From an uncultured Planctomycetota bacterium (lineage in GTDB: Bacteria > Planctomycetota > Planctomycetia > Isosphaerales > Isosphaeraceae), in assembly GCA_963845755.1 (NCBI GenBank), contig CAWJTV010000011.1, forward strand, positions 96,001 through 160,000: a stretch of DNA of 64,000 nt. The letters run 5' to 3'. Made by a program: the position numbers and the translations under genes. This document shows positions 1,060 to 46,905 of the stretch, piece by piece. The notes under the pieces were generated by a model, which did not search any database, was not told the origin of the DNA, and saw only the letters and a program-made list of their open reading frames with translations. Every line of letters begins with the position of its first letter. Positions within the stretch are counted from its first letter, which is position 1.

Positions 1060-2916
1060 TCACCGAGAGAGCGAGAACTCCAAGCAAGAGGGGCCGAACC
1101 GCATCATGCCGGCCGGCCCCGGGGGAAGATCGCCGGGTGATGCCCACCCCACGAGAAGAGCCGTCAGGACTACGGCCGGCGTTCCCGCGACTCGGTCTCG
1201 GAGGGCCGCGTTCGAAACGCGCTGGCCTGGAGCAGGACGGGCCGGCTGCCGGGTTGCCGGGCGTCGTGCTGCACTCGCCGCGCCGGCGTTACGTCCCTCC
1301 GGTGTTCCGCGGCGCCCCGCTTCGGCCGCGGGCCGGGCTTCGCGCGCCTCCATCTGACGCGATGATCCCCTCTCCGCCTCATCTCGGTGGGCGACTTCGG
1401 CCCGAGCGCCTCCGGCATGTTCTGCGGGGTGGCCGCCGGGATGGCCTGCGGGATGTGCCGCCGGGTGAGCCGCGATCGGTGAATGGGGCAAGCTCATCGT
1501 CCGGGGCCGGTTGGCCATGCCGGAGCGGGCCGCCTCGCGCTCCTGGTGCAGCCGCTGCTCCCGCAGCTGGTGCAACTGCGCCACATTCTGTCGCAACTGC
1601 CGCCGCTCTGCCTCGCTCACCCGCACCATCCGCAGGTTCCTCCCGGCGATCGGATCAGCGGCTAATCGGTTCAGCGGCATACCCATGGTCCGATGGTCGA
1701 TAACGGTAATGTTCCGCGTGATCGAGACGTTCCGCTCGATCCGAATCTGCTCGGCGTACGTCCCCGGCGGCCGAAACGCCACGTTGTCGCGGCGGAGGAT
1801 ATACGCCTCGCGGACCTGCGCAATCCAGCGCGGGTTCTGCCGAAGATTCACCACCGCATAGTACGAGAACAGCGGGTCGAAATAGGCCGGGCGGCCCGTT
1901 GCGAAGCTGAAGGAGAACCAGGGGACGATCCCGACGCTGACGAAGTTCTGGGCGTAGAAGTTACCGAAGAGGTACTGATTCGTGCTCGCCTGGACGAACA
2001 GGTTGCCGGTCACCGCCGAGCCGACGATGCTGATCGATGGTGTGAAGGCGAAGCCCGGTTGGGCGTAGACCGGCTGGGGGTAGTAGACCGGTGCGAACAT
2101 GAGCCCGCGGTTGGCCACGGGCAGGTCCCAGTAGCCGGGGACGAAGAGATACCCACTGGGAGTCCAGACGTAATGGGCGGGAATCCAGATCCAGTTGGGC
2201 TGGACGGCCGCCCAGAACCCGGGCCGCCAGGCGTAGCCGCCTTGCTGCCAGGACCAATAGCCCGGCGTCCAGGCCACGTTGGGTCCCGGCTGCGGCGTGT
2301 TCGGGCCCGACTCCAGGCTCTGCGGCGGCGGCGGGAGATACGTCGCCTGGCTCTGACCCTGGGGCTGGGCCTGACCCTGACCCTGGGCCGGTCCGGCACT
2401 TACGGGCATCCACGAGCCGGGGACCCACTGGTTACCTCCATCGACCTGATGCCAGTACCCGGGGACCCATTGGGTGCTCGGCGGCGGCTCGCGCCAGATG
2501 CCGCTGACCCACAGGTAGTCGTTGCGCGTGACGTCCCAGGCCCAGTATCCCGGAATCCACTGGATATTCTGGCCCGACGGCTTCTGGTCTGGTGGCATCT
2601 CCTGGATCGGATCCGGCGGTCCCTTGGGTACGATCGGTCCGGCCTTGGCGTCGTGAACCACCGGCGCGGCGAACGCCTCATGAACCGGCCCCTGCGTCAA
2701 GACCTGCCCCCCTTGCGGATCCGTTTCCGCACCCGGTTCCGCCGCCGGACTTCCCTGCGGGTTCGCCCCGTCCGTGACGGGGGTCGGATTCGGGGGCGGC
2801 TCATCCTGACCCCATGCCACCGAGGATCCCATCATCCCGACCGACCACCCCACCATCACGGCAAGAACGATCCGGCTGACAGGCCGAGATTGCCCGGGGA
2901 CTCGAGGAATCGACAC
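1060..2916 (-). CDS. Secreted YXWGXW-repeat (WxxGxW) protein with Pro/Arg-rich tail
   Basis: Repeated WIPGYW/WVSGIW/WVPGYW/WTPGYW/WRPGFW motifs; signal peptide; GTG at 2916 preceded by AAGGAG. Confidence 0.8.
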   Translation of the reverse strand: MSIPRVPGQSRPVSRIVLAVMVGWSVGMMGSSVAWGQDEPPPNPTPVTDGANPQGSPAAEPGAETDPQGGQVLTQGPVHEAFAAPVVHDAKAGPIVPKGPPDPIQEMPPDQKPSGQNIQWIPGYWAWDVTRNDYLWVSGIWREPPPSTQWVPGYWHQVDGGNQWVPGSWMPVSAGPAQGQGQAQPQGQSQATYLPPPPQSLESGPNTPQPGPNVAWTPGYWSWQQGGYAWRPGFWAAVQPNWIWIPAHYVWTPSGYLFVPGYWDLPVANRGLMFAPVYYPQPVYAQPGFAFTPSISIVGSAVTGNLFVQASTNQYLFGNFYAQNFVSVGIVPWFSFSFATGRPAYFDPLFSYYAVVNLRQNPRWIAQVREAYILRRDNVAFRPPGTYAEQIRIERNVSITRNITVIDHRTMGMPLNRLAADPIAGRNLRMVRVSEAERRQLRQNVAQLHQLREQRLHQEREAARSGMANRPRTMSLPHSPIAAHPAAHPAGHPGGHPAEHAGGARAEVAHRDEAERGSSRQMEAREARPAAEAGRRGTPEGRNAGAASAARRPATRQPARPAPGQRVSNAALRDRVAGTPAVVLTALLVGWASPGDLPPGPAGMMRFGPSCLEFSLSR

Positions 2917-3096
2917 GTCTGCTCTCCTTAGAATCGCGTGACTCAAGACCGCCGCATCCCACCGACGGCGAGGAATCCTCCCGACGGCGACTCCTCGTCG
3001 AGTCTGTCGGAGTTCCCGCAGGGTCGGGATTCTACCCGTCGTGCGAGAATCCGTCTGCCAGAGTCTCTCGGAATCGCCCCGTCCGGCCACCACGTT

Positions 3097-12921: not shown

Positions 12922-15395
12922 TCAGAAGTGGGATGCGTGGACCCGGCGGAAGTTGAGTTGGGGCGTTTGGCTGTCGGCCATGGCATCGCGGATGCCGCCG
13001 CGAAGTGCGTCGATCAGGTCTTCCTCCGGATGGCCGTCGGCCGGGTAGTCGACCCACTGGCCGCCACGGCGCTGCTTGGAGTAGTTCCGGAAAGCGTCCT
13101 TCAGCCGCGTGCACCGCGGGTGAATCGTCAGGTTGCCGGTCTCCAGGAGCAGCTCGATCGCGTCGAGGCCATCCAGGACCAGGTGTCGGGGCCAGCGATC
13201 GAGGATGCGCGTGCCGAAGACGCGTTCGTATTCGCCATAGGCGGCCGGGCCCAGCGAGGACCGCGCTGTCGCCGCGGGGTCGACACGGACGGAGTCGATC
13301 CGGCCACGGCACGGCAGCTCATCGGCCAGCGCCTTGATGGCACGGGCATTCTTCTCGCTTACCCGATCAATCGCGTGGTAATCGCCGAAGACCGTCACGC
13401 GCGACCAGCCGGCCGCCGGATTCGGTCGGACCTGGAAGAAGACCGCTGCGGTGTGGCGCGACGTACCGGCGTCGATGGCGCAGCGGACCGGGTATCCGGG
13501 GTGATACTCGGCCTCGGTGGAGACGTGCCGGGCAGGGTCGAAGTTGGCGAACCAGACGCCTTCGGTCGTCTCCAGGAACTCGGCGTAGATCTCCTGGCGG
13601 CCCAGCCGGGTATGCTCGTACAGGCTGACGATCTGATCGACGAACTCGCGGGGCAAGTGGACCTGGTTGTCGTAAGTGGTTTCGGTCGTCCGGACGGTGG
13701 TCGGCTCGCCCAGGATTCGCTTCAGGACGGCGACGCGGCGCGGCGTGGTCGTGATGAGGGCCTGGGGATTGGCCCCGTCCCGCAGGGCCAGCATCGCCAG
13801 GTCCCAGGTCATCTGGGCGCGCTTCCAGCAGTTATGGACCAGGATCCCGTTGGCATAGAACTCGTGGGCATCTTCGACGTGAAGGTCGTAGACGGGTGCC
13901 CTATCGGGAAGTTTCTCGATCCTTACGACGGAGGGCGGACTGCTGGCTCCAATGAATTGCCTGACAGCGTCGCGAGCACGTGATCCGCAGGTGTAAATTG
14001 GCTGACGAGAATGGTTGTTGACAGATGGGACACAACTTTGCCGGCCTGCGCTTGATGCGCCGGCGCACGCGATAGGCATCCCCACATTCTCGTGAGCACG
14101 TGACCGTTCGAGGATCGCGGCTCGGAATGGAGTGCCACAGATCGCACACGGCTTCTCGGTTCGCCTCCGTTGAGAGACCTTTGGCTTCTTCGGCCTCGGT
14201 TTAACTCTGCCGGTCCGGTAATAGTACCGTTGCGCACACCGGATGTTGCAGAACTTCGCTCGCATCCCAGTGCTCTGGTAGACAGTTCCGCACCCGACAC
14301 AGACGACGTCGCGCGGCTCCCTTTCGCCCCACTGCTTCCATGAATTCTCCTGAAACTGCTCCTTGGACCATGCAGCCCAACCCTTGGGCCTATGTCGTTT
14401 GAGATGTACCGAGCGAGGAATCGCTTCGAGGTTTTCCGGCGCCCAGTTCGTCTTGTCCTCATCCTTATGGTGGACGTCGTATCCTCTTGGGATTTCTCCG
14501 CAGTGAGCGCGGTAAACGGCGCGATGCAGCATCCGCCCGTTTCGGGACACATAGTACCCGCCGTTGAGATACCAACGGATCCCTCCCCAAGACACGACGC
14601 GAGGTGACGATTGTCCCATGCATTGATTCTATCGCCATGCTGCAAAAGATCAATCCGAATCCACCCCTTTTCATCGATGAATACAAGATGGTTGGCGGTG
14701 CCTTCGAGCGTTCGTCCGTCGGAGAACGTGACCCGGTAGATTTCGGCGGAAGGATTGGACTGCCAGGAATCGAGAACGCGGCGGGGGCCGACGCGGGTCC
14801 ACACGTGCTCGCCGGCTCGCACCGATTCGATCGGCCTCAAGCCTTCGATCGTCTGGACGAGGGTCCCCGCGACCAGGCACGCCAGCTCGTCGGCCCAGAG
14901 GGTGTCGAGGTTCAACCCGCGGGCGCGCTCGGGCTCCTCGCCGCTGAGACAGACGGCACGGGCGCCGTTGGGCCAGGTGACGCGGCGTTTGGACGGCTCG
15001 AACCGAGGCCGGCACCACGGGGACGCGACCGCGAGCAACCCGGAGGGGCCCTCGACCATCACATCGCGGATATCGGCGTTGGTCGGAGCGATCAGGCCGC
15101 CGAGCTTCATGATGCCGGACTCGACCCGGGACTGGATCCAGCAGGCCCCTCCGCGCGTCTTTCCGGCACCTCTCCCGGCGATGTATCCCCAGACGCGCCA
15201 GTCACTTGCGGGCGGACGCTGGGCGACCCGCGCCCGGGGATGAATACGGCACGCGCCGGCAGGCAGCCCGCACGGGCAGGATTCGGCGTACCAATCCCAA
15301 ACCGAGCGGTCGGCCACCAGGGGTGCGAGCGTGCCGAGGCGGGCCTCAGCTCGCGCAATCCGCGCTGCCAGTCCGATCACCGATCTGCTCCTCAA
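12922..15395 (-). CDS. terL: Phage terminase large subunit interrupted by an intein (one apparent 1-nt frameshift near 14120)
   Basis: Walker A AGRGAGKT, GEEPERARG, Walker B LWADELA, LITTTP, TTYDN, RLGRQEIYAEF, nuclease AIDAG and EEDLIDALR. Confidence 0.9.
13831..14879 (-). mobile_element. Intein in terL (inserted right after Walker B), about 350 aa
   Basis: Begins CLVAGTLV..., block B LEGTANHLV, ends VYDLHVEDAHEFYANGILVHN followed by Cys+1 (CWKRA). Confidence 0.92.
13901..14619 (-). CDS. HNH homing endonuclease with CxxC zinc-finger repeats, nested out of frame inside the intein
   Basis: LHRAVY...GEIPRGYDVHHKDEDKTNWAPENLEAI...H; CVGC..FCNIRC, CAIC..TCSREC, CPIC..TCSRRC. Confidence 0.85.
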
Positions 15396-15740
15396 TCTGG
15401 GACATGCGGCGCTCGAGCCCCGCGTAATTCGAGATGGCCATCATGTCGGAAAGGATGGCCCGCAGCGCTGTCAACTTGACGGACTCGGACTCGGCCTCCC
15501 GGGCGAGCACGATGATCCCATCGGCCGCGCGGGTGACGTTCTTGGACATCCGGCCGATGGCCCGGTCGACGGCACGGCGGCGATACGCCTTCACGGCGTC
15601 CTGGACCCTGGGCTCCTTGGCCCATCGGTAGGCCGTCCGCCTGGCGACCTGGTGCTCCCGCGCCACGAGGCGACGGACGTTCCCTGGGCGATTGCCAGGG
15701 CGAGGTTGGACTTCTTGCCTGGGGGATGCGGTTCGGTCAT
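15346..15740 (-). CDS. Terminase small subunit-like HTH protein (frameshifted near 15665)
   Basis: LALAIAQGTSVASW/AREHQVARRTAYRW HTH, helical C-terminus; immediately upstream of and overlapping terL. Confidence 0.65.
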
Positions 15741-15969
15741 GGCGTCAATTGGCAGTCAACGGCAAGGATCCGTCGGCACTCCAGCGCCCCACTCGCGGTT
15801 CTCAGCCCGAGGCCCAGGCTGGCCGGCATGCCCGCGAGGGGCGAGGAAGTGACGTCAAGCAGGATCGAGCACGAGACTCCGACGCGAAGCTCGACGGTCC
15901 GACCGCACCGGCACGCTGCCAGGGGCCCGACTGCCGATCATCGACAGTCGCTTTCACCGTCGTTACTTA

Positions 15970-16087
15970 CAGGATGCCGCAACTTTGGAATTTCGTTAAT
16001 GCACCTACGACGGTTTCTAGCTGTTTTCGCGGCGCAACCCTCGGTATCAACACGAATTAAGAATTTTCAAAAAATTTTTTGCGCTGG
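15970..16087 (-). promoter_or_regulatory. Conserved upstream element, copy 1 (terS-terL operon)
   Basis: Reverse complement of 15970-16007 matches 42308-42345 at 35/38 nt; A/T tract 16061-16087 matches 42228-42254. Confidence 0.75.
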
Positions 16088-16156: not shown

Positions 16157-18029
16157 TTAGCGGGTTGCTGGGGGTGGCCCGTGGCCCACCGGGGGCAGGA
16201 AGTGCGGCCGCGCCGTGTCCACCGGCAGGACCTCGCCGGGGGGTCGCGTCGAGCTGATCTCCTGGGCCGGGTACCCCAGGGCGTGGAACAGCTCGAACTG
16301 CGCCCGGTTGTACTCGGAGACCGTCGTGAAGTATTCCTCGAAGGCCACCCACAAGAGTTGGAGCGCAAAGACCGCTTCTTGTGGACGGTTGATCAGGACC
16401 AGGACGTTGCCGAACCGCTTGATCTGCGTCAGGCCCTCGAAGTTGCCGTTGAGATTGATGATGCCCGTGCGGAGGGCGCGATCGGCCTGGAGGACGCGGG
16501 TGGCCGCCAACTGGACGCGCGCCAGGGCCCGGTTCACGTCCGCCGCCACCCGGTCCTGCGCGCGGTAGAGATCGACGATGGCCTGCGATTGCTGGGCCCG
16601 TTGCCGCTTGATCATCGCGAGGTTGCCGAACCCGAAGTTCTGGAGCTGCCACACGAGCTGGACGCTGACATCGTCGCGGCCCCTCCACTGGTTCATGAGG
16701 CCGTTGGGGCCCAGGCCGAAGATCCCGCCCTGGATCAACATCCCGCCAGGGGACTGGAAGCCGCCGATCACGACGGTGGGGAGGGCCGGGCGCATCGTCT
16801 CCCGGCGGATCCCCGCCGTCGCGGACTCGATCATCGCTTTGCGCGAGGCGACCTCGGGCCGGTTGGTCAGGGCGACGGACATCAGGTCCTCGAGCGAGCG
16901 GCCGGGGTCAACCAGCGTGATCTGGAGGTGGTCGTGCTCCAGCGGCTCGACGACGGCGCGGGGTCCAGCCGCAGGACCTGCGTCAGGTTGGCGCTTGGAC
17001 CCGCCACTGCTGCCGGGCTGAGACGGCCCGCTGCTGGAGGTCGGCGACCATGTTCTTGGCCCGCTCGACCTCGAACTCCACGACCAGGTCGCGGCTCATC
17101 GAGGCGAGCCGCTCGACCAGCTCGTGCCCCCGCTTGACGCAGTAGAGCGCACCGGCGTACTTCCCGCGATACTGGTGCACCAGGAAGTAAGCGTCGGCGG
17201 TCCGGAGCAGGGCGTCGTTCTTGGCCGACTGGACATCCCAGTGGCGGGCCTTCAGGGCCTGCCGGGCCACCAGGGGCTGGTAGATCGCATCCGTCGTGGC
17301 GATGGCCCCCCAGAGGCCGCCACCGCCGTAGAAGTAGTTGGCGCTGACCGCGGTCATAATGCCCTTGTTGAAGTCCGGGCCGCCGCCGTCGTGGCGGAGG
17401 TAGTCGGCGCCGACGTTGATCCCGGGGAGCCAGAGGACCTTGGCCTGCTGGAGGTCGGCCTCGGCGACCCAGACGCTGGCCTGGGCGGCGGCGACGATCA
17501 GCGGCCGGGCGTCGGAGAGCCGCAACGCGGTCGCCAGGTTGATCGGAAAGCGGAGGTCGGTCGGCACGAACGGCGCTGGGTCGAGCTTGACGGTCAACTC
17601 CAGGGGGGAGGGTGGCAGTGCGGCCGCATCGCTCCTCTCCTGCGCACGGCCCGGAGCCGCTCGCGACGGCAGGGGCGACAGCACATCGTGGTCGTCCACG
17701 CTCGCTGGGCGGTTGACAGCCGATGGCGCGGTCGTCCCCGGCCGTGAGGATGGCCCTTGCCAGTGGCCCGGTGACGTCAGAGGGATCGGCGGCGGGGCCG
17801 GTGGAGGCAAGTCCCGGCCACTTTGTCTCATGAAGCGTTGGATGACGGGGGACACCGTCAACGGCGGCAAGGGCGGCGGCTGTGTGGGAGGCGCGGGGTT
17901 CGTCGGCGTCGCGCCGGTCGGGGGCTGGGCCGCGCGCGCCGGAGACCCGAGCCAGGGAAGCAGCGAGGCTACGATCAGCATCCAGGGCCAGGCAGATCGT
18001 TGCCTCATTCGAAATCCCACTCCCATCAT
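16157..18029 (-). CDS. TolC-family outer membrane efflux protein, paralog 2 (frameshift near 16985)
   Basis: RFPINLATALRLSDARPL, ALTNRPE, EYNRAQFELFHALG; signal peptide. Confidence 0.8.
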
Positions 18030-46239: not shown

Positions 46240-46905
46240 TCGCTGATTCAGAGGACCAATGCGGCGAGGCGTCGCCGCTTCGAGCCGGATGACGCTTGCC
46301 CGCGACCCAACAACTCGGCTATCTGGCTTACAGCATTCGATGAGTCGTTCCATGTCACCACGACCACGGATTACAAGCCCGGACTTCCCGTGCATCTGGC
46401 CGTCAATCCGGGTGTCCACCGAGGTACCAGCCAGCACGGGCTTCGACCCCGACTCGCCGGCCGGGAACATGTTGCCACAGTTTTCGACAGCTCCTTCGCC
46501 TCAGGAGAGTCCGCCGAAGCCAAGGTCATGCGTATGCGATCCCGAGAACTCCGCAAGGTCGGAATGACCTACGTGATGGGCTCGATGAAGCCGGCGGAGC
46601 ATTGCCGACTCTGCAACGAGGTGAAAGTAGAGGGCTTCCTGATGCGACTTCGATACTCCTGGCTCGACCTTGTGACGTACCCGATCACCTTTGTGCTCCT
46701 GGCGCCCTGGCCTGGCATTTGGTCCGAATCCTACTCGATTTCCTGGGCTATCCGACCATGGATCGATGACCATCGATCGTGTGGTGCCCGCGGCGCACTC
46801 GACAATCCGGGGTTCGCTGACGACCCTCTTCACCAAGCATTATCACCCTATGCCATTCGACTGGCTCAAGAAATCGACGTCCCCCCAGCCGGGGCGCGGC
46901 ACTAG
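46240..46905 (+). pseudogene. Degenerate terminase large subunit remnant (nuclease-domain region only)
   Basis: IWLTAFDESFHVTTTTDYKPGLPVHLAVNPG aligns ungapped (13/31 identical) to VWFANFDPARHVSTEAEYHPGYPVRCAIDAG of the terL at 12.9-15.4 kb; sits just upstream of the portal. Confidence 0.65.

Follow-up and report, generated by a model that had tools for sequence, protein, structure and literature searches.

A nested HNH endonuclease gene within the large terminase (terL) intein of brucellaphages was noted by Tevdoradze et al. (2015, PMC4422536), and a recent preprint (Gosselin, Arsenault and Gogarten, bioRxiv 2025) describes actinophage inteins in which an endonuclease VII-like gene occupies 'frame 3', and proposes that this arrangement originated when a free-standing gene invaded the intein. 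Two further systems are close to these: the ShiLan domain, an HNH that lies concealed in another frame of the methylase gene of a mycobacteriophage (Arsenault et al. 2025, PMC11855218), and the 'fractured genes', in which a free-standing endonuclease gene lies between the halves of a split intein (Dassa et al. 2009, PMC2677866). Here we describe a terL gene from an uncultured planctomycete of the family Isosphaeraceae (GenBank assembly GCA_963845755.1), found in a stretch of 64,000 nucleotides (nt) that we call 'the window' (contig CAWJTV010000011.1, positions 96,001 to 160,000). We think it probable that this prophage-type gene carries a class 1 Hint intein on which an HNH endonuclease gene is overprinted in the -1 frame, and that one base has been lost from the sequence through an assembly error.

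The layout is already known, and the window holds a further member of the intein type with an out-of-frame endonuclease that the 2015 and 2025 reports describe: an open reading frame (ORF) for the nuclease lies between the splicing blocks, and the intein frame across it is open. The preliminary description of this DNA had called the layout unusual, which it is, but not new. As in brucellaphage Tb (gp07/gp08), a same-strand HNH gene with zinc ribbons is situated in another frame between the two halves of a terL intein. Unlike in the window, however, the HNH gene of Tb (gp08, annotated as a separate coding sequence, CDS) is at +1 and its zinc ribbons precede the HNH domain; the sequences are barely similar (best BLASTP E-values of 0.001 for L009, a relative described below, and 0.011 for the window, over short stretches), so that neither the homology nor the architecture of the brucellaphage type is seen in the window HNH. 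The inteins of Gosselin et al. share with it a same-strand, out-of-frame endonuclease in a contiguous intein, often in terL, and the same offset. Their endonucleases belong to the endonuclease VII family (IPR004211), whereas the window product combines an HNH_3 domain with zinc ribbons; no Endonuclease_7 match to the window was obtained at E up to 0.1, and HNH_3 was the sole find. ShiLan likewise consists of an HNH gene overprinted on a stop-free host-gene frame, with internal initiation proposed, but it is without splicing domains and its insert remains in the host protein. The arrangement of the fractured genes recurs in three relatives of the window locus (L057, L075 and L087); 36 other relatives differ from it in being contiguous, and the nuclease family differs as well, according to the 2025 preprint.

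The nearest solved structure to the window HNH is, weakly, that of I-HmuI (PDB 1U3E), the HNH homing endonuclease encoded by an intron of phage SPO1 (profile E 0.0074). When the HNH model was compared with the PDB by Foldseek, I-HmuI was also the top row (E 0.1, with no row at E up to 0.001). It has an HNH core and an N-terminal beta-sheet in common with the model; unlike the window HNH, it is intron-encoded and lacks zinc-ribbon repeats. We found no earlier description of a family with HNH_3 and zinc ribbons inside inteins in a literature search that excluded most subscription journals; as accounts of the layout itself, the search yielded only the 2015 and 2025 papers cited above.

The intein interrupts terL just after the Walker B motif. 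All parts of the gene are on the minus strand, and we denote its frames by coordinate modulo 3 (frame A, 2; frame B, 0; frame C, 1). The features of the locus are as follows (IntN and IntC, the N- and C-terminal splicing halves of the intein; aa, amino acids).

14880..15395, minus strand: TerL N-extein, the ATPase domain to Walker B (...LWADELA); frame A; Pfam Terminase_6N positions 3-117, E 1.8e-10; phrog_2
13831..14879, minus strand: whole intein, 1049 nt as assembled (350 codons minus one base)
14622..14879, minus strand: IntN, with Cys1 in CLVAG and block B GTANH; frame A; relative-built profile E 1.2e-28
14125..14619, minus strand: HNH ORF, part 1; frame B, at -1 relative to the intein; starts with an ATG at intein codon 87
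14111..14124, minus strand: stretch with the missing base, which shifts the intein frame from A to B and the HNH frame from B to C
13901..14122, minus strand: HNH ORF, part 2; frame C; second half of zinc ribbon 2, and ribbon 3; open frame 14149..13901
13831..13932, minus strand: IntC, ...VYDLHVEDAHEFYANGILVHN; frame B; profile E 4.9e-20; Pfam Intein_splicing positions 122-155
12922..13830, minus strand: TerL C-extein, the rest of the ATPase and the nuclease domain; frame B; Terminase_6N positions 108-211; phrog_2 E 9.6e-11
15346..15666, minus strand: small terminase subunit gene (terS), directly upstream of terL; PHROGs phrog_2538, E 1.3e-9

The boundaries of the intein (CLVAG at 14879 to VHN/C at 13831) had been placed in the preliminary description exactly to the base, and its assignment of an HNH motif and zinc fingers to an alternative-frame ORF from ATG 14619 is confirmed by an HNH_3 match (Pfam PF13392, E 2.1e-12, 46.9 bits versus a curated cut-off of 24.8) and by CxxC ribbons. 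The N-extein, with a putative start at TTG 15395 (merely the first start codon of the ORF), ends in ...LWADELA and continues in frame A as CLVAGTLVQTIEG... from 14879; that frame is open from the N-extein through the intein down to 13923. IntC reads VVRIEKL...ANGILVHN/C, with Cys+1 at 13830-13828, and leads into a C-extein that is 56% identical to an intein-less paralog of the same genome. Three features of a class 1 Hint intein (a first-residue Cys, a TxxH block B, and a C-terminal His-Asn followed by Cys+1) are present, and C1, T62 and H65 are invariant in a Hint alignment of 19 relatives; the IntN region also matched Hint_2, PT-HINT and Intein_splicing in Pfam, each below its cut-off. The G+C content of the intein is 0.586 versus 0.689 for the exteins.

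Part 1 of the HNH ORF comprises the HNH_3 domain, a helical region and zinc ribbon 1, together with the first of the two CxxC motifs that form ribbon 2, and its frame B matches extend over 14589-14113 (relative-built profiles, E 1.2e-27 and 5.8e-17). The match continues in frame C over 14113-13937 (E 8.2e-10; this part is absent from the profile's alignment), and the HNH stop codon (13903-13901) lies 70 nt before the end of the intein. Residues H46, H47, N59 and H68 are invariant in the HNH alignment, and the window sequence retains them as VHHK...NL...H. The predicted product of the nested ORF is an HNH_3 nuclease of ~239 aa with three zinc ribbons. The profiles place IntN in frame A, the HNH first in frame B and then in frame C, and IntC again in frame B. 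No stop interrupts the intein frame on either side of the break.

A single reading frame from N-extein through intein to C-extein is absent from the window as assembled and present in 36 relatives. The best match among the genomes of the Isosphaeraceae is locus L009, from genome G012, where the intein interrupts terL five codons upstream of the site used in the window (W|CDELA versus ADELA|C). Its intein frame is continuous over 990 nt, with a middle of Ser/Thr/Arg/Gly-rich filler, and its -1 frame holds a complete ORF for an HNH domain and three ribbons that ends 64 nt before the end of the intein. The overprinting of an HNH gene on a contiguous terL intein, as first proposed for the window, is thus supported by a relative in which both frames are open. 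The terL gene of L009 also contains, farther upstream (L009:2-1234), a LAGLIDADG-type intein (Pfam LAGLIDADG_3, E 6.4e-8), and so has two inteins with different endonuclease arrangements.

The same relation holds across the family. When the parts of the window and L009 were used as tblastn queries, 37 loci with IntN, HNH and IntC were recovered, among them two cultured phages and, besides L009 itself, two duplicates of that locus. Of the 37, 33 have both halves in one frame, an intein of 810-1014 nt (a multiple of 3), the HNH at -1 and a stop-free intein frame. A broader set of 123 HNH loci (43 from genome_contigs and 80 from viral_contigs), fetched with a two-protein HNH alignment, was classified with profiles; 19 of the loci had served to build these profiles and so match by construction. 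At least one Hint half was detected near the HNH in 61 of the 123, and none in 62. Homologous inteins with both frames open, for which the preliminary description had called, account for 36 loci (contiguous, HNH at -1, no stops). The others comprise 17 loci with a single Hint half and the HNH at -1; one in which the HNH is again at -1 but the intein frame contains stops; three in which the two halves share a frame that has many stops and the HNH is at +1; three whose halves differ in frame; and one with IntN alone and the HNH at +1. A frameshift within IntN was seen in L026. Relative to the nearby Hint half the HNH is thus at -1 in 54 of 61 loci and in frame in none; an HNH in frame with both halves, which the preliminary description had named as a finding that would refute it, was sought and did not occur. 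The +1 cases L057:2209-3189, L075:2215-3189 and L087:2101-3201, all on viral contigs, are true split inteins, in which a stop ends IntN, the HNH gene is free-standing and IntC has its own start codon.

A profile search of 1.84 billion representatives gave 1261 clusters at E up to 1e-30, and the majority of the best 150 measure 198-300 aa; none of the 19 longer proteins tested among those 150 has a Hint domain, their added length being due to another HNH_3 or to additional zinc ribbons. That no protein longer than 289 aa joining the parts was found at E up to 1e-5 is weak evidence. Taken together, the relatives support the overprinting reading, and on their sequences the layout of an intein with an overprinted HNH gene is real and common.

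Shuffling of synonymous codons in the window leaves no stops in 17% (frame B part) and 42% (frame C part) of shuffles. Since these shuffles alone are compatible with chance, the statistical weight for dual coding comes from the relatives. Selection was examined in 21 representatives with less than 80% HNH identity (155-223 HNH codons each). The intein frame has no stops in any of the 21, versus 1-34 in the third frame, with 15-34 at 30-51% G+C. In synonymous-codon permutations, the share of trials without a stop ranged from 0.05% to 57% of 2000 per locus, and all 21 representatives are at the extreme of their permutation distributions; the loci are related, so the per-locus shares cannot simply be multiplied. 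Permutations that keep the HNH protein predict 0.5-4.4 stops in the frame used by the intein versus 2-35 in the other frame. That this offset is the cheapest to keep open may, we believe, be the simplest explanation for a -1 relation that is nearly universal.

Of the two frames read from the same DNA, the HNH frame is the more conserved (1.52 versus 0.24 in BLOSUM62 score per residue over 210 pairs, with a mean HNH-frame identity of 39%). Structure prediction for L009 with AlphaFold2 gave a mean predicted local distance difference test score (pLDDT) of 82 for the HNH ORF. In the intein frame of the same locus, residues 1-90 and 291-330 scored 94-97, and residues 91-290 scored ~40 and were without secondary structure. 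We conclude from these comparisons of sequence that double coding is under selection in the relatives.

How the nuclease would be made is suggested by the positions of its start codons. An ATG, GTG or TTG is located at intein codon 82-92 in 19 of the 21 representatives; AGGAG or AGGAGG lies 6-8 nt upstream of the start in five (including Clostridium phage phiCDHM19), and a further seven have a 4-nt Shine-Dalgarno match only. In-frame slippery heptamers occur in five representatives, at unrelated places. Given conserved start codons and slippery heptamers that are few and unrelated in place, the nuclease is likely made by internal initiation, and programmed frameshifting is an unlikely route.

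We propose that ribosomes translating terL would produce a chain consisting of the N-extein, IntN (~87 aa), an unstructured spacer of ~200 aa, IntC (~35 aa) and the C-extein, the spacer being the HNH gene read one base off. The two Hint halves would then splice the exteins into active TerL. Other ribosomes would begin near intein codon 87 (ATG 14619 in the window) and make a free protein of ~239 aa with an HNH domain and DNA-binding zinc ribbons. This enzyme would cut or nick intein-less terL, and repair would copy the intein into the cut allele (homing). Selection on TerL would hold the spacer frame free of stops, and selection for homing would hold the HNH frame.

Insertion sites and hosts were surveyed in the same family. 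Pfam TerL domains were found in the N-exteins of 15 of the 19 representatives tested, and four had no match. In most representatives the intein is located near the end of the nuclease domain, with a C-extein of 18-79 aa; insertion at Walker B is seen in the window, L009 and L126. The last of these (L126:2166-3551, a phage terL from IMG/VR) has both neighboring sites around Walker B filled, in the order overprinted-HNH intein, four residues (CDEI), and a 127-aa mini-intein at the site used in the window. Hosts of the HNH family include planctomycetes, Firmicutes, Bacteroidota, actinobacteria and archaea, and tblastn found the family in 77 GenBank phage records. In the cultured phages phiCDHM19 (gp2; L137, 2029-2719) and TJE1 (terL; L138, ~2414-3059) the HNH ORF lies under the terL CDS in the -1 frame and is unannotated in the records; in Pseudomonas phage PAE1 and Salmonella phage Shemara the HNH is free-standing beside terL.

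Within the Isosphaeraceae, five of 101 genomes (counting this one) have an HNH match, and this genome has a single copy, the one in the window. Intein-less terL paralogs are present in the same genome (C28, C37 and C4), with no spread of the intein to them; both C37 and G020, a genome of the same genus, have VDEL|CAFRY at the empty site. A soil metagenome contig carries an allele that lacks exactly the 1049 nt (13810 joined to 14877 through 17 intervening letters). Elsewhere in the window, at 46312-46518, there is another, weak TerL-like match (33% identity over 71 residues, E 4.9e-5), where there are ORFs of 171 and 695 aa.

A base missing near 14120, breaking both frames at once, had been suggested in the preliminary description, and this is borne out by a 235-aa metagenome protein (P0001) that reads straight across the break. 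Its residues 1-164 align with the frame B part (65% identity, E 4e-79) and residues 167-235 with the frame C part (55% identity, E 1e-17). Residue 164 is at codon 14118-14116 and residue 167 at codon 14110-14108, so two residues face five bases (14115-14111), and exactly one base is missing within 14111-14124. The HNH profile matches of frames B and C also abut, at 14113. The change from frame C to frame B where the HNH ORF ends is genuine, since a soil contig of ~98% identity spans 13881-14114 without a gap and the same change is seen in all relatives. Contigs from four sequencing runs cover 13881-14114, 14163-14429, 14382-14532 and 14706-14856. Among the 22 runs listed, none had half or more of the words of the stretch (best share 0.13), and two exact-match scans of metagenome contigs for 26-base anchors flanking the break found none.

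The assembly itself contains many such shifts. Over ~11 kb of essential genes of this genome, profile matches split between adjacent frames reveal one frameshift in rpoB, two in rpoC and one in dnaE (G000 C34:79366-83015, C34:567489-571586 and C33:84022-87148, respectively). At each junction, where we take the expected residues to be those of conserved motifs, a single base is changed; the surrounding sequence is rich in G+C and in most cases is not a long homopolymer. In the window, a TolC-like outer-membrane efflux gene 2.9 kb away (16157-18029, minus strand) is in three frame pieces, with two single-base deletions near 16960-17000 relative to genome G020, whose copy is itself shifted elsewhere. 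At ~0.35 shifts per kb, ~0.9 artefacts would be expected in the 2.47 kb of terL. Because of this rate and the contiguous close homolog P0001, we favor an assembly error as the likely source of the missing base. More generally, broken genes in this assembly should not be taken for biology without read support, since single-base indels are frequent.

A number of observations weigh against the reading of the locus as an intact overprinted intein with an assembly error. The open intein frame of the window is by itself not significant (P ~0.07), a Shine-Dalgarno motif is absent before ATG 14619, and the profiles used for classification derive from 19 of the 123 loci classified. No read or independent contig in the runs searched covers 14115-14162. 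The neighbors of the terS-terL pair are not phage genes but genes for an amino-acid permease, for efflux and for a tetratricopeptide repeat (TPR) protein, and four other nearby ORFs have no PHROG match; such a setting, if it is that of a decaying prophage remnant, would tolerate a real frameshift. The C37 terL paralog (G000:C37:4547-5393) is in three adjacent frame pieces, and is either a pseudogene or the site of further assembly indels. For every member of the family, moreover, splicing, translation of the HNH and cleavage are deduced from sequence.

That terL and its nested HNH gene might be recent pseudogenes in a decaying prophage remnant, with a real frameshift and a layout inherited from a functional overprinted intein, is the main rival explanation, given the ordinary chromosomal genes that surround the terS-terL pair, and we regard it as possible but doubtful. 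The lack of phage structural genes beside the pair would fit it, as would the several terL paralogs of the genome (one of them broken into three), the uninvaded empty sites of those paralogs, and an extra base that finds no read support in the runs searched; yet the lesion is the only one in 2.47 kb, every catalytic and splicing motif is intact, and the frameshift rate of the assembly would by itself produce about one such artefact in a gene of this length. If the base is indeed missing from the genome, a single deletion in the dual-coding stretch could instead have turned an overprinted intein into a split one, to which we give a small chance. The HNH start codon would then drive IntC and the C-extein, with the N-extein and IntN made separately, and contiguous overprinted inteins could in this way give rise, in one step, to fractured genes like those of the three relatives. 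A two-piece gene in its fuller form, in which ORF 15395..13923 (N-extein, IntN and a junk tail) would trans-splice with ORF 14619..12922 (truncated HNH, IntC and C-extein), seems to us improbable. Both ORFs are open as assembled, and in the true split inteins of L057, L075 and L087 an HNH of this family lies between the halves; in those three, however, IntN stops just after the splicing half and IntC starts itself, whereas here frame A runs past IntN to 13923 and the sole frame B start upstream of IntC is the HNH ATG at 14619. IntN would trail ~230 aa and IntC would bear a broken nuclease of ~230 aa, the frameshift would split a zinc ribbon, and an assembly error is simpler.

Two further explanations concern the frame relation. 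If ribosomes reading the intein frame underwent a programmed -1 frameshift, the HNH would be made as a fusion with the N-extein and IntN and not by internal initiation. This would agree with the -1 offset of most Hint-bearing loci, an offset that is more simply explained as the cheapest to keep open; with slippery heptamers at differing places in just five of 21 representatives, and start codons at codons 82-92 in 19, five of them behind a strong Shine-Dalgarno motif, we consider it very unlikely. We give practically no credence to the explanation that an ordinary intein, with its HNH in frame, was broken by three separate frameshifts (near 14620 from A to B, near 14120 from B to C, and near 13930 from C to B), which is suggested by the use of three frames within 1 kb of an error-prone assembly. 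The A to B and C to B changes are the normal state in relatives, where the HNH is never in frame with a Hint half, and we rejected this explanation because the relatives' frame changes are identical; the gap-free soil contig in addition excludes an assembly indel at the C to B change, and the longer family proteins tested are without a Hint domain.

Between terS and the efflux gene the window also contains a short element of ~40-75 nt (15964-16044), with at least 40 copies in the genome and many in the same-genus G020, which may be a small dispersed repeat. A tRNA origin for it was ruled out, as ARAGORN found none.

The copy in the window by itself adds little beyond showing that the family has reached planctomycete chromosomes and uses a second site in terL, at Walker B, beside the commoner one near which the nuclease domain ends. 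Taken together, the members of the family provide a clean natural case of long dual coding, in which ~600-700 nt are subject to two different selections, and the family supports the acquisition of endonucleases by inteins through invasion of free-standing genes. Many terL annotations, those of cultured phages included, hide an unannotated nuclease gene.

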